64,000 nucleotides of DNA from a virus (taxonomy: Duplodnaviria > Heunggongvirae > Uroviricota > Caudoviricetes), in the IMG/VR virus record IMGVR_UViG_3300034102_002845; one strand, given 5' to 3'. The notes beneath the pieces were generated by a model, which was not told the DNA's origin, did not search any database, and saw only the letters and a program-made list of their open reading frames with translations. Shown here in pieces: positions 18,703 to 61,891 of the stretch (within the stretch, counting starts at the first letter, position 1; each line of letters begins with the position of its first letter). A program made the position numbers and the translations under genes.

Positions 18703-18829
18703 TGACTAAGAGTGTTAGCGGTTAGCATGTTCCTTTGGGCGAAAACAGTAAGATAGAACGAAGGCCAAGTTCCGTATCTGTAAGTAGTTTTGGACAGAGG
18801 AGGTTGAGGTTCGAGTCCTCATTAGTCAA
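18703..18829 (+). ncRNA. tRNA-like RNA with ~52-nt hairpin insertion in the anticodon arm
   Basis: TGACTAA/TTAGTCA acceptor, TGAGG-TTCGAGT-CCTCA T arm, insert closed by AAAAC/GTTTT. Confidence 0.65.
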
Positions 18830-19781: not shown

Positions 19782-19958
19782 TTGCCACTTTGCGCTGGAA
19801 AGATAAACCAGGCTGCCGGTGGCTCAAACCCCCCTTGTTACAAAATTCCTGCTAAACAAGGGGGGGGGGTAAGCGCAGGCTCATCCTTAGATGCCATTTG
19901 TTGGTTTCCTTAGTCTAAGGTGGTATAAAGGTAAACCAACAATCCCTCCGGAGGGGAA

Positions 19959-20023
19959 GGTGCGTGGCTTAGTGGTAAAGCTGGTCCGAAAGGCTGAACG
20001 CAGGTTCGATTCCTGCCGCACCA
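19959..20023 (+). ncRNA. mini-tRNA with anticodon arm replaced by a GAAA tetraloop hairpin
   Basis: GGTGCG/CGCACC acceptor, GCTT/AAGC D stem, canonical T arm. Confidence 0.6.
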
Positions 20024-20252
20024 CTCAAAGTGAGATTCGAGAGTTAGTCGCCTCGACACCCGCAGGGGTGTAGCTTAAAAGACTCCCTAACAGAGCGCAC
20101 TCAACCCCAGTCATCCCACGGCGCTGGTCGCATAGCCGAAGGCACTTCCTGAAGAAGGAACAACTACCGCTGGCGGACCTGGGGCGGTTTGTTGTAAAAC
20201 AATTGGTAATCAGTAGCGTCTCGCGAGCAACGCTGATACAACCAGGTCCTGC

Positions 20253-21172: not shown

Positions 21173-21246
21173 GGGCTTACATGTACCAAGGCTGGCGAGA
21201 TTGCTTTGCAAGCAAACTGTGAAGAGTTCGATTCTCTTTAGGTCCA
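21173..21246 (+). tRNA. trnA: tRNA-Ala(TGC), atypical D arm
   Basis: G3.U70; loop TTTGCAA. Confidence 0.8.
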
Positions 21247-21264
21247 CTTTCGCTAACGCGAAAA

Positions 21265-21382
21265 CACGAGGGAGAAATGTCGGTTCAAGTCCGACCCTGG
21301 GAGCCTATAACGTAGGGTCCTGGGTAGTTTAACTGGTGCCAAGGACTTGTTATCAGTACGCACAAGTCCAAAAACTTCTCCC
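21265..21382 (+). ncRNA. apparently circularly permuted tRNA (3' half 21265-21303 precedes 5' half 21318-21382)
   Basis: acceptor TCCTGGG/CCTGGGA and anticodon stem TTCTCCC/GGGAGAA pair between the halves. Confidence 0.7.
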
Positions 21383-26169: not shown

Positions 26170-26324
26170 CGAAGTGTGCCGGAATTGGTATACGGCGGTG
26201 TGGATTCAGCCAATACGGATGGGGTTGTGAACAAATAGCAACCTCCTAGCTCATGGTTGCAACCACCGATCAGGTAACAGCTAGACGTAATCCTGATATG
26301 AGAGTTCGAGTCTCTCCACTTTGG
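26170..26324 (+). ncRNA. 155-nt tRNA-Leu-like scaffold with expanded anticodon domain and variable arm
   Basis: CGAAGTG/CACTTTG acceptor, Leu-type D loop, GAGAG-TTCGAGT-CTCTC T arm. Confidence 0.65.
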
Positions 26325-26418
26325 TTACCCTAAAACTTAGCCCGTGTACAACGGGTGAAAAAAAGGGGGTAAAGTTTCTTTAACTGTGTACCCTTATAAG
26401 AGGGATTGCGCAGCAATC

Positions 26419-26503
26419 CGCCCCATCGACTAACGGCGTCGTAGCCAGGTTAGGTCGCTACTTTCTTAAGGTAGAAATGCCGGTTCGACTCCGGCTGGGG
26501 CGA
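26419..26503 (+). tRNA. trnK: tRNA-Lys(CTT) with ~13-nt hairpin insertion in the D loop
   Basis: CTACT-TTCTTAA-GGTAG; GGC-GTCGTA-GCC insertion. Confidence 0.7.
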
Positions 26504-26506
26504 TTC

Positions 26507-26629
26507 CCCTAAGGTAAATAGCGGAACTAAAACTGAGTTCGATTCTCGGGATACTTGGAAGTTGTGTGGGTTCGATTCCCAACTAGAGTGCCGGCGCACG
26601 GGAAGGTTCGAAGCCTTCTATCTTAGGGT
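26507..26629 (+). ncRNA. RNA with three tandem T-loop hairpins inside a closing stem
   Basis: TTCGATT, TTCGATT and TTCGAAG hairpins; CCCTAAG/CTTAGGG closure. Confidence 0.6.
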
Positions 26630-26632
26630 GAT

Positions 26633-26721
26633 GGAAGATTGGCCGAGTGGTTGAAGGCGACGGTTTGCTAAACCGTTGAGCTGCGCAAGCAGCTCCGTGA
26701 GTTCGAATCTCACATCTTCCG
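26633..26721 (+). tRNA. trnS: tRNA-Ser(GCT)
   Basis: long variable arm; loop TTGCTAA. Confidence 0.9.
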
Positions 26722-26751
26722 TTGTTCTCTCCGAAGAACTACAAGAAAAAT

Positions 26752-27586: not shown

Positions 27587-27636
27587 TTGAAAACCTTTCG
27601 GTTTTCTAGCTACAAACTTACCGTGTTATGGTAATT

Positions 27637-27724
27637 GGAGAGAGTCCGGCTGGACGAGGAGACCGTCTTGAAAACGGTTACAGGGGGGAGACCCCCTGCG
27701 CAGGTTCGATTCCTGTTCTCTCCG
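27637..27724 (+). tRNA. trnS: tRNA-Ser(TGA)
   Basis: loop CTTGAAA; long variable arm. Confidence 0.85.
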
Positions 27725-28317: not shown

Positions 28318-28391
28318 CGCGGACGAGTGTCACGGTAGTCACGCTGGGCCCATAACCCAGAGGAGCAGGGGTTCAATTCCCCGGTCCGCCA
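28318..28391 (+). tRNA. trnfM: initiator tRNA-fMet(CAT)
   Basis: unpaired position 1; three consecutive G-C pairs in the anticodon stem. Confidence 0.8.
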
Positions 28392-39942: not shown

Positions 39943-40266
39943 GTGAAATCACGCGACTTTTGCTACTGGCTTCAAGGATTCTTCGAGCTTGCCGAACCGG
40001 TCACACTCACACCGACGCAAGTTGAAACGATCCAAAACCACTTGAGTATGGTTTTCTACCACGAGATTGACCCTTCCTTTAGTGGTCCGAAAGAACAAGA
40101 AGCCCTAAATAGGCTTCACTCACCAAATATACACTCGGTTAGCTCAGCGGTAGAGCGCCCTCCTTACAAGTGGGGGGTGCCACAGAGTGAATCCACGTGT
40201 CCAGAGTCGGGGCACCATACGGCGCACGGAGAAGATCGTACATCGACCACCAGGATTAAATGTTGA
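39943..40266 (+). CDS. hypothetical protein (F..WLQGF family) containing an embedded tRNA-Val fragment
   Basis: motif; 40131-40174 identical to 33173-33216. Confidence 0.65.
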   Translation: MKSRDFCYWLQGFFELAEPVTLTPTQVETIQNHLSMVFYHEIDPSFSGPKEQEALNRLHSPNIHSVSSAVERPPYKWGVPQSESTCPESGHHTAHGEDRTSTTRIKC

Positions 40267-58157: not shown

Positions 58158-59300
58158 ATGACAATTACACGAAAAGAAATTGAAGACGGGATGATCCTGT
58201 TTTGCAAGTCAGGCAGCCACGCCTATGGCCTCAACACCGAGATGTCTGACCTGGACTTTAAGGGCATCTGTGTTGCGCCACAGCGGTTTTACACCACTCT
58301 CGAAACATTTGAGCAAAAGGATAAAGGGTGGGCAGGGGAGCAACAAGACGAGGGTGAGTTCAACTCAAGATTCCCTGAGTTAGATAATTCCGACTCAGTG
58401 GTGTACGGCATTCGCAGGTACCTGAGCTTGTTACGGTCGCAAAACCCAAACATTTTGGAGATGCTGTGGCAAACTCCCGAAAGCTACCTATACCTTGACT
58501 TTCTGGGGCAGTCGCTAATTGATAACCGAAGGAAGCTCATTTCCAAGAGAATCTCTGGCACATTCGTTCAGTACGCAAGGTCCCAGATCAAGAAAATGGA
58601 GACTCACCGCAAGTGGCTCTTAAACCCTCCAACACGGCGACCGACGTGGGAGGACTACGGGGTTTCTTCGCCGAGCTTAACCCCCTCTCAAATCGAGTCA
58701 TTCATTGAGTACTTGTACTTGCTGATTAAAGACAGAATCGAATACTACCAGCCTTCAGTCGAGCTGTACGAGTTACTCAACGACCGAGTTGATTGGAAGG
58801 GAATCCTGAAGCAGAGTGTCTTACCGGAAGAGTGCTTCGACGAGACGCAGAAAATCACGAGGGCAAGTGACGAGTACATGGCCCTTCTTCACTCAAGCCA
58901 GCAGTACCGGTCAGATTTAAAACGGTGGAGTAATTACCAAGATTGGTTGACTAATCGGAATGTGAAGCGATCCGAAATTGAGCGGGCCTGTGGGTACGAT
59001 GGGAAGAACGCCAGCCACTGTGTTCGACTTATGAAAATGGCTATTGAGGGAATGCGAACCGGAGAGCTTCTTGTGAATAGGAAGTTAGCGGGGGACGCAG
59101 ATTTTCTTCTGGACATTAAGTACGGCAAGATTACGTATGACGAACTAAGCTCAATTGTAACTCAACTGTTTAAGGAGGCTGAGCACGTAATGACGAACGA
59201 GTGCGTCTTACCGAGCACGGTAGATGACCAACTCATCAATACTCTTTGCGCTGAGACTGTGGAAAAATTTCAAAGTCTCGGTTGTATTGAGAACCGGTGA
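58158..59300 (+). CDS. DNA polymerase beta-superfamily nucleotidyltransferase (RlaP-like)
   Basis: GSHAYG....SD.D.KG; NPNILEML; YDGKNASHCVRL. Confidence 0.8.
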   Translation: MTITRKEIEDGMILFCKSGSHAYGLNTEMSDLDFKGICVAPQRFYTTLETFEQKDKGWAGEQQDEGEFNSRFPELDNSDSVVYGIRRYLSLLRSQNPNILEMLWQTPESYLYLDFLGQSLIDNRRKLISKRISGTFVQYARSQIKKMETHRKWLLNPPTRRPTWEDYGVSSPSLTPSQIESFIEYLYLLIKDRIEYYQPSVELYELLNDRVDWKGILKQSVLPEECFDETQKITRASDEYMALLHSSQQYRSDLKRWSNYQDWLTNRNVKRSEIERACGYDGKNASHCVRLMKMAIEGMRTGELLVNRKLAGDADFLLDIKYGKITYDELSSIVTQLFKEAEHVMTNECVLPSTVDDQLINTLCAETVEKFQSLGCIENR

Positions 59301-61305: not shown

Positions 61306-61499
61306 CTGAAGGAGACCTAGAAAAGTTGGTAGAAAACGGAGACATTCTGAGCTACTCTTACTTAGAGGTTAAAGATTACCAGGGCTCACACTGCGGAGAA
61401 TACCTACAACTCAATTTACCGTCCGGAGCTTGCATAGGGGTAAGCTCGTGGTCAACTCCCGCCCCTGAAACGAGTGGGCTAAGAATAGGAGTTTATTAG
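61302..61499 (+). CDS. hypothetical protein
   Basis: ATGA overlap. Confidence 0.5.
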   Translation: MTEGDLEKLVENGDILSYSYLEVKDYQGSHCGEYLQLNLPSGACIGVSSWSTPAPETSGLRIGVY

Positions 61500-61530
61500 G
61501 CGGACAGTCCTACCATACGACTCTAAACTA

Positions 61531-61831
61531 GGGGTAGCTCTGGAAGATAGTGCCCTATACAGGGGTTCGAATCCCCTCACCTCCATTTGAGAACGTGACC
61601 GTCCCTTCTTCAACCTTCCGACTTACTGAGAAGGCAGGGTCACTGTGGGTTAAACTCCCACCTCTAGTCAAGGGGGTGCCATGGTCTCGCTAGGGTAAAG
61701 ATGTCGCCTGAGTGAAAGCCGCTTGCATAAGCACAAAATAGACGCTAACAACATCGTCAAATTCGAGAGGATTGCCGTTGCCGTTTGAGCAACCGCACTC
61801 TGACTCATAACTCGGGGGGTTTCGGCCCCCT
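61531..61831 (+). ncRNA. ssrA: two-piece (circularly permuted) tmRNA: acceptor piece ~61531-61585, intervening segment, coding piece from 61672; tag (A)ANNIVKFERIAVAV
   Basis: AGGGG-TTCGAAT-CCCCT T arm and CACCTCC-A lie upstream of GGGGGTG (G3.U70); helix TAGGGTA/TGCCCTA; tag ORF 61744-61788. Confidence 0.9.
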
Positions 61832-61891
61832 TACACCGCCAACTTTCCTGGCCAAAACAGCACCCTACACTCCAACCCACGCTGAAACACT

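Follow-up and report, generated by a model that had tools for sequence, protein, structure and literature searches.

What is an RNA with three transfer RNA (tRNA) T arms doing inside the tRNA array of a phage? The question is raised by a 123-base element found at positions 26507-26629 (+ strand) of the viral record IMGVR_UViG_3300034102_002845, of which a stretch of 64,000 nucleotides, designated the window below, was analysed here. The element lies between two tRNA genes, as a first-pass annotation of the sequence had stated, and has a closing helix (P1) around three canonical T-arm hairpins. The same annotation described a triple T-loop RNA and proposed that it is a multivalent elbow mimic or sponge for T-arm-binding proteins. 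The comparative analysis presented here makes it almost certain that the element belongs to a real family of structured RNAs. It is apparently a conserved small phage RNA that is undescribed in Rfam 15 and in the literature searched, and it probably works by imitating tRNA.

The fold is a P1 helix of 8-12 base pairs (bp) closed around three tandem units of ~35 nucleotides (nt), giving an RNA of ~120 nt (Table 1). Each unit is composed of a GG segment or mini-hairpin followed by a T arm with a 5-bp stem, a closing G-C pair and the loop UUCRANN. The three T-loop hairpins are present with the sequences first noted. The enclosing helix exists as well, but it is longer than the CCCTAAG/CTTAGGG initially proposed: it has 10 bp in the window, one of them G-U (CCCTAAGGTA/TATCTTAGGG), and it re-uses the arms of a small hairpin that stands separately upstream in the related locus L006. 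T arm 2 was first taken for a 5-bp stem (GTGGG/CCCAA); there is a hairpin at this position, but it has a basal G-A mismatch and 4 bp in the window copy, while the arm has 5 bp in L006 and L007. The reported lack of D arms was inaccurate, since a GG-bearing, D-loop-like segment precedes each T arm and two of these segments are hairpins with an NGGN loop. In tRNA, the T arm directly adjoins the acceptor stem; T arm 3, which abuts the 3′ strand of P1, is positioned in the same manner. A relaxed triple-T-loop pattern has a single match in the 64-kilobase (kb) window and none in 100 dinucleotide shuffles, and the covariance model R1 (see below) also finds only one copy within the window.

Table 1. 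Components of the element and the two genes that flank it (window coordinates).
Feature	Position	Strand	Sequence	Remarks
P1, 5′ strand	26507-26516	+	CCCTAAGGTA	pairs with 26619-26628; all 8 core pairs covary among relatives
First GG segment	26517-26532	+	AATAGCGGAACTAAAA	GG at 26523-26524
T arm 1	26533-26549	+	CTGAG/TTCGATT/CTCGG	5-bp stem with one G-U; 7-nt loop
H2	26553-26562	+	loop TGGA	3-bp hairpin; D-loop-like GG at 26557-26558
T arm 2	26566-26582	+	GTGGG/TTCGATT/CCCAA	4 bp; outermost G-A unpaired
H3	26588-26599	+	GTGC/GCAC, loop CGGC	4-bp hairpin; GG at 26593-26594
T arm 3	26602-26618	+	GAAGG/TTCGAAG/CCTTC	zero spacer to P1 3′ strand
P1, 3′ strand	26619-26628	+	TATCTTAGGG	pairs with 26507-26516
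Upstream neighbour, unusual tRNA-like gene	26419-26503	+		ARAGORN; Rfam tRNA 31.4 bits over 26435-26503; 3-nt gap to P1
Downstream neighbour, tRNA-Ser(GCU)	26632-26722	+		ARAGORN and Rfam; 3-4-nt gap after P1

Is this architecture found elsewhere? The window DNA is most similar to T4-like cyanophages and its nearest relative record is G001, a viral contig of 277 kb that is 98% complete; the virus is thus a large freshwater cyanophage-like one, and the element is part of its tRNA array. Relatives were searched by pattern scans of IMG/VR and with R1, whose E-values are rough due to a shortened calibration. Distant members were omitted from this first model because their repeated arms led to misalignment by MAFFT. 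The homolog search, which had been suggested as a check of the initial description, recovered the same architecture in a cultured phage and in many viral contigs. The cultured phage is Synechococcus phage S-CRM01 (Kyanoviridae), which is 81% identical to the window across a non-coding stretch near the element. Its copy is unannotated (HQ615693 136452-136575, equivalent to L001:4993-5116; R1 104 bits) and is positioned 3 nt upstream of a tRNA-Ser. In L006 (R1 125 bits) the copy follows an orthologous tRNA. Pattern scans and R1 identified the same architecture in L007/L008, L017/L059 and L018/L024, and it is found also in L009, an actinophage-like contig with a guanine plus cytosine (GC) content of 67%. 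More distant copies are those of L082, L087, L102, L118 and L128. Members thus occur in freshwater and marine cyanophage-like contigs, in an actinophage-like contig and in jumbo-phage tRNA arrays. The R1 scores of the members found by the IMG/VR pattern scans are 98-125 bits, as compared to ~15-25 bits for ordinary tRNAs.

Five further freshwater metagenome copies were found by R1 (L156/L186, L170, L183, L194, L182). They had been fetched through a cyanophage-group motif that touches T arm 1 only; the scan of metagenomes with this motif gave 59 loci, six of which are true copies. Among the isolates tested with R1, S-CRM01 has the sole confirmed copy and S-CREM1 carries a two-arm variant, while no copy was found in RN05-S, DSL-LC03 and XacN1. 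Comparison by blastn of the window element and of the L009 and L017 copies to 50,697 phage records yielded no match, as the family is too divergent for sequence search. A strict triple-T-loop pattern retrieved at least five true elements from IMG/VR. The same pattern, which catches part of the family, had two matches in 185,579 bacterial and archaeal genomes (one per species), and both were rejected (one is a tRNA plus a terminator, the other a coding repeat). Within the part of the family that the strict pattern sees, this points to an element restricted to phages.

Covariation in the helices is strong. In alignment A5 (15 distinct sequences), 95.2% of the cells pair, compared to 64.8% in shuffles, although this pairing is inflated by the fitting of A5 to the model; both-side changes are found in 25 of the 30 pairs, and the covariation score is 0.735, while displacement of the partners by 1-3 columns lowers it to 0.16 or less. 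To offset the bias of A5 towards the model, RNAalifold was run on A6, a plain MAFFT alignment of nine members that was not fitted. It returned the identical six helices (P1, T arms 1-3, H2 and H3), with compensatory changes in 23 of 29 pairs. P1 is free in sequence (CTGAACTA/TGGTTTAG, CTCAAATA/TGTTTGAG, GTCGCCCG/CGGGCGAC, GGATCAG/CTGATCC). T arm 1 has both-side changes in four of its five pairs and an invariant closing pair that resembles G53-C61. The H2 stem covaries (AC/GT, GC/GC, GA/TC, CCC/GGG, CTC/GAG) with retention of the GG, and in H3 all four pairs change on both sides while the loop is NGGN in every member. The first GG segment is kept in sequence within the cyanophage group (AAATAnnGGAACnnAAAC) and is a hairpin with GG in its loop in distant members. 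The cyanophage group also keeps conserved unpaired stretches, e.g., AAATA..GGAAC..AAAC.

These data bear directly on the possibility that the element is made of decayed or rearranged tRNA genes, functionless debris of deletion or recombination. The setting lends itself to such a view: the array of 43 tRNAs also holds ~10 orphan T arms, T arm 3 is one nucleotide off the T arm of a nearby tRNA-Asn, and the element is missing from the nearest relative. R1 found no copy anywhere in the whole G001 record. The flanks of G001 are 95-99% identical to the window, and the homologous tRNA is followed there by a 20-nt hairpin and then by tRNA-Ser(GCU) at 99% identity. The absence of the element from the closest relative identifies it as an accessory cassette. 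The resemblance of T arm 3 to the tRNA-Asn arm is not the result of a recent conversion, since GAAGG/CCTTC is common to distant copies such as that of L009. Compensatory changes affect every helix across very different phages, and hairpins with a GG loop are not parts of tRNA genes. The first-pass annotation had allowed for unconserved debris from tRNA deletions; conservation with compensatory changes in phages of 37-67% GC contradicts it, and we consider a debris origin without function extremely improbable.

A role at the DNA level, as a recombination or integration hot spot or as a nuclease target made of T-arm repeats, would be in line with the frequent use of tRNA T-arm DNA by integrases and homing nucleases and with the cassette-like presence or absence between near-identical relatives. 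However, only one strand tolerates G-U pairs, and the compensatory changes preserve RNA helices. Furthermore, the orientation of the element within arrays always follows the tRNA strand, and no integrase or nuclease gene was found beside it in the loci examined. Such a role is thus very improbable.

Is the element then a tRNA, or a member of another known RNA class? ARAGORN called no gene over 26504-26631 and there is no Rfam tRNA (RF00005) match in this region at E≤10. A canonical tRNA was rejected as there is no cloverleaf and P1 has 10 bp here and 8-12 bp in relatives, compared to the 7 bp of an acceptor stem. An aberrant decoding tRNA was also envisaged, in which T arm 1 would serve as anticodon arm (UUCGAUU reads CGA, Ser) and be followed by a giant variable region, or which would bear an intron. 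The order of P1, GG segment, 5-bp/7-nt hairpin and small hairpin, ending with T arm and P1, is indeed reminiscent of a class II cloverleaf, and the element adjoins tRNA-Ser. In its 3′ third, the small hairpin, the T arm and the 3′ strand of P1 occupy the places that variable arm, T arm and acceptor have in tRNA-Ser (class II, RF00005), the best T4 match of R1 is tRNA-Ser with the variable arm on H3, and the cyanophage copies abut tRNA-Ser genes. The difference is that the element is without an anticodon arm and has three T arms and a terminal helix of 8-12 bp. When assessed for U33, a purine at position 37 and a stable anticodon, the hairpin is found to be a T-loop (TTCGATT) with U37 and a middle triplet that is either CGA or CAA. 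The loop of T arm 1 is TTCAATT, TTCGAGT or TTCGAAT elsewhere, so that the “anticodon” would shift at random. Adding that ARAGORN and Rfam leave the element uncalled and that no intron family was matched, a decoding function is most improbable.

Rfam 15 was scanned by cmscan over 26350-26750 at E≤10. No family corresponding to the element was found; the matches were tRNA, a 15-nt fragment of the transfer-messenger RNA (tmRNA) T arm and chance matches. Scans at gathering thresholds of the window and 17 related loci gave only tRNA and tmRNA. The tmRNA candidate was rejected because only the 15-nt T-arm piece matches (8.2 bits). The true tmRNA of the phage is a permuted one of the two-piece type at 61496-61879 (Rfam tmRNA_permuted, 68 bits).

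YrlA-type Y RNAs are non-decoding RNAs with tRNA-like T and D stem-loops that are modified and processed by tRNA enzymes and are present also in phages (PMC4201824). Their single T arm and single D arm are permuted, they have a Ro60-binding stem, and they are encoded beside rsr (TROVE) (Chen et al. 2014, PMC4201824), whereas in the element one helix encloses three T arms together with three GG loops and there is no Ro60-type stem. The Rfam scan of 26350-26750 at E≤10 has no Y-RNA or YrlA match. TROVE (PF05731) is absent from G001, G002, G003, G004 and S-CRM01, with control genomes positive and the window partly screened. The lack of a Ro60 gene and of an Rfam match indicates that the element is not a YrlA-type Y RNA. 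In phage T4, rnaC (species 1) and rnaD (species 2) are stable non-tRNA RNAs of unknown function that are tightly packed in the T4-like tRNA cluster, and rnaC ends in a T arm and an acceptor-like strand. The common trait is a non-tRNA gene in the tRNA cluster of a T4-like phage. However, neither T4 RNA has a triple repeat or more than one T arm, and homology was rejected: R1 gives 14 bits at the 3′ end of rnaC, which is below ordinary tRNAs, and nothing on rnaD. In the literature on T-loops, tRNA-like phage RNAs, S-CRM01 and tRNA-elbow mimics no such RNA was found described, which is not proof of its absence in print.

What could three T arms under one helix form? In the tRNA elbow, G18 and G19 of the D-loop intercalate into and pair with T-loop positions 55-58, and a number of elbow readers are established (PMC4810234). 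In the element, the closing helix encloses three T arms, the last of which abuts the 3′ strand, and a GG precedes each of them. The GG is found in 45 of 45 segments preceding T arms (15 members). It is mostly exposed in the loop of a hairpin of 3-5 bp (TGGA, TGGT, CGGC, AGGA, TGGC, GGGT) whose stem covaries, L018 being a minimal form with GG-bearing linkers only. There is thus one GG loop per T-loop, the ratio that three tRNA-type elbows would need. Known T-loop modules that imitate or grip the elbow, such as elbow-mimicking viral tRNA-like structures, mascRNA and the double T-loop receptors of RNase P, T-box stem I and the L1 stalk (PMC4810234), have one elbow or one interdigitated T-loop pair within a larger RNA; none of them has three T arms and three GG loops. 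The 1:1 ratio between GG and T-loops argues for tRNA-type elbows rather than for an interdigitated double T-loop receptor. The anatomy first described was right except for the D-loop-like parts, the idea of an elbow mimic gains support from the presence of one GG loop per T-loop in all 15 members, and the original interpretation is supported in part. We lean slightly towards a three-elbow fold.

The T-loops might instead be mere building blocks of an RNA whose real job is to bind a ligand, a protein or an RNA, unrelated to tRNA imitation. Possibly it would even grip tRNA elbows through stacked T-loops, as T-box stem I does. T-loops are a general fold motif of large RNAs, and in the L1 stalk, RNase P and T-boxes the platform that binds the elbow is made of paired T-loops (PMC4810234). 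A self-contained fold would likewise call for as many GG loops as T-loops, and the conserved unpaired segments of the cyanophage group are compatible with a binding function. On the other hand, the full tRNA T-arm signature is kept in all three hairpins, including arms 2 and 3 of copies that were found without requiring it. That the entire signature is retained, and not just the 5-nt T-loop motif, is in favour of selection by factors that recognise tRNA identity. The position within tRNA arrays also speaks for tRNA imitation, as does the stacking of T arm 3 on P1 in the manner of an acceptor stem, and a structural role without such imitation is regarded as unlikely.

Does the RNA act on its neighbours or at a distance? 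In the cyanophage group a tRNA-Ser gene is found directly downstream in all six copies with a known neighbour. The gap is 2-4 nt (5-7 nt from the 8-bp core helix), the isoacceptor is GCU in the window, S-CRM01, L156 and L170 and UGA in L006 and L194, and the gene on the upstream side is not constant. Such a fixed position, maintained despite changes of isoacceptor and upstream neighbour, would be explained if the element were a cis part of the tRNA precursor, i.e., a leader or spacer that helps the adjacent tRNA to be processed, to fold or to remain stable, for instance because its elbows attract RNase P or RNase Z, and that has no role after cutting. The presence of the majority of members inside tRNA arrays and the position of a two-T-arm relative directly 5′ of tRNA-Ser(GGA) in L006 and L194 agree with this explanation. 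The link to Ser may, however, be synteny inherited in one phage lineage. Distant members are tightly packed among other tRNAs (Gly/Met in L102, Gly/Arg in L033, Glu/Arg in L087) and precede Met, Arg and other tRNAs, not Ser, while G001 retains its tRNA-Ser(GCU) without the element.

The cis explanation is further weakened by copies without an adjacent tRNA. The L017 copy is placed between two open reading frames (ORFs), followed by a terminator-like hairpin and a T-run. That of L009 is antisense between portal-like and terminase-like genes, and that of L018 is found after a terminator, 75 nt before an ORF. G004, a complete phage of 148 kb, has its copy 7.6 kb away from the tRNA cluster. These stand-alone copies suggest action in trans, and a purely cis role, with or without RNase recruitment, appears unlikely. 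Two observations were made at these loci. Just downstream of the L017 copy, L017:704-1012 codes for a domain of the cREC_REC family (cyclic-phosphate processing receiver, PF20274), which is linked to RNA-repair systems; this is a single case. In L007:2634-3163 (G004 ~51.2-51.8 kb) the element is apparently contained in a ~530-nt RNA whose ends form a 7-bp acceptor-like helix, with a 5′ D-arm-like part and a 3′ T arm (minimum free energy (MFE) z = -3.5). It would be a tRNA-framed RNA that carries the element as cargo.

The preferred reading, elbow imitation in trans, can be laid out in three steps. The GG of each unit would dock on its T-loop as G18/G19 do on Psi55/C56, creating three tRNA-like elbows. 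The element would be co-transcribed with the adjacent tRNAs and released by the enzymes that trim these: RNase P cleaving at the 5′ end of the downstream tRNA, which in the window is tRNA-Ser(GCU) and would set the 3′ end of the element, and RNase Z or RNase E cleaving after the upstream tRNA. The released RNA would then pass for a tRNA in trans and occupy or recruit a factor by which the T arm or the elbow is read. Candidate targets are TruB, TrmA, RNase P, RNase Z, the CCA-adding enzyme, the ribosomal tRNA sites or a host enzyme of tRNA-directed defence. Taken from end to end, the chances of a mimic of tRNA elbows or T arms that is released by tRNA processing and acts in trans, as decoy or platform, are judged evenly balanced. 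A decoy or sponge role in particular, as originally proposed, is put forward tentatively. More doubtful still is a multivalent tRNA decoy that in several phage lineages would jam or divert a host factor that reads elbows or T arms, such as an immune nuclease or transferase directed at tRNA, or RNase P, TruB or TrmA. If true, phages would possess a new class of RNA-based device for counter-defence or take-over, carried on a cassette that is gained and lost between close relatives.

Apart from the inflated pairing of A5, several points weigh against elbow imitation. The MFE fold of the single sequence is unexceptional (z = -1.1), so that the support rests on comparative data. Covariation cannot probe the putative docking of GG on T-loops because both partners are invariant. 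Most members were fetched with patterns that demand the T-loop consensus, and the invariance of the T-loops is thus partly due to ascertainment; only in the five metagenome copies fetched through T arm 1 are T arms 2 and 3 unbiased. Direct RNase P cleavage at the element's own 5′ end is doubtful as P1 has 8-12 bp and RNase P measures 7 bp. Finally, no recurrent neighbouring protein gene that would hint at a partner was found in the loci examined, and Pfam searches of the neighbours of stand-alone copies revealed no common gene.

Phage tRNA arrays are usually taken as a codon supply or as spare parts against host defence. A conserved non-decoding RNA in which nothing but the tRNA elbow is present in triplicate would imply that phages also select tRNA shape, beyond decoding. 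Identification of its target would show which host or phage machine merits titration by three elbows at once, and a compact modular fold of repeated GG loop and T arm would extend the structural repertoire of RNA. The proposal is testable because the cultured pair S-CRM01/Synechococcus sp. LC16 has a copy and a natural close relative (G001-like) lacks one. For annotation, it is relevant that such elements go unannotated or could be miscalled as tRNA pseudogenes.

The array surrounding the element has 43-46 tRNA genes and the permuted tmRNA, all on the + strand between 16.7 and 61.9 kb of the window (ARAGORN, Rfam). The gene upstream of the element (Table 1) is labelled tRNA-Stop (anticodon tta) by ARAGORN. 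According to the Rfam alignment and to the G001 and L006 orthologues (tRNA-Glu, CUC), the anticodon loop is TTCTTAA, which gives CUU (Lys), and the gene has a 12-nt insertion in the D region relative to G001. The assignment as a suppressor is probably spurious; the gene resembles an enlarged tRNA with a shifted anticodon. The tRNA-Ser(UGA) at 27636-27724 is above threshold on the Rfam selenocysteine-tRNA model (RF01852, 53 bits) and not on the tRNA model; it is probably a class II look-alike rather than tRNA-Sec. Weak tRNAs detected by Rfam and not by ARAGORN are found at 19958-20024, 28318-28391 and 40133-40189. Approximately 2 kb upstream of the tmRNA, positions 58158-59300 code for an RNA-repair nucleotidyltransferase of the RlaP family (PF10127, 1.5e-18; for the family and RNA repair see bioRxiv 10.64898/2025.12.29.696909), which indicates that the phage invests in RNA repair. 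Co-occurrence of RlaP with the element was considered and rejected: RlaP is present in the window and in the element-free G001, and is not found in the element-bearing S-CRM01 and G004.

Other non-canonical RNAs with T arms were noticed. A non-tRNA element of ~150 nt at window positions 26170-26324 has a terminal helix (GGTAAC/GTTACC) and one T arm at 26300-26316. S-CRM01 has an unannotated counterpart (HQ615693 135460-135613) with a conservation of 81%, and in G001 the conservation is 95%; the element seems to be a tRNA-framed RNA with extra domains. About ten perfect T-arm hairpins (17 nt) are found outside called tRNAs in the window, with starts at 18805, 19396, 20521, 21222, 21279, 21676, 25846, 27562 and 28096. 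They suggest that the array contains several more non-canonical tRNA-like RNAs. A second multi-T-arm candidate at 21196-21312 was discarded since its fold is unconvincing (z = -0.2). The two-T-arm relatives of the element have a closing helix, GG loops and a YTGGCAAT linker (L006:1120-1208, L194 and S-CREM1, OP535465 44481-44571), the S-CREM1 copy being located between tRNA-Phe and tRNA-Ile.

A second recurrent phage RNA is formed by a normal tRNA followed by a T arm, a conserved CTCGGTTGYYGAG..YTGGTG and a second T arm. It occurs in many unrelated viral contigs (L031, L103, L105, L108, L110, L112, L119, L121-L123, L016, L025, L035, L044, L048, L055, L063, L072, L093) and has no Rfam match past its tRNA. 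A third type, identified in viral regions of isolate genomes (L011-L014, L021, L057, L068, L075, L104), has a T arm followed by a helix (AGCGTGT/ACACGCT) around two T arms and a strong intrinsic terminator at its end.
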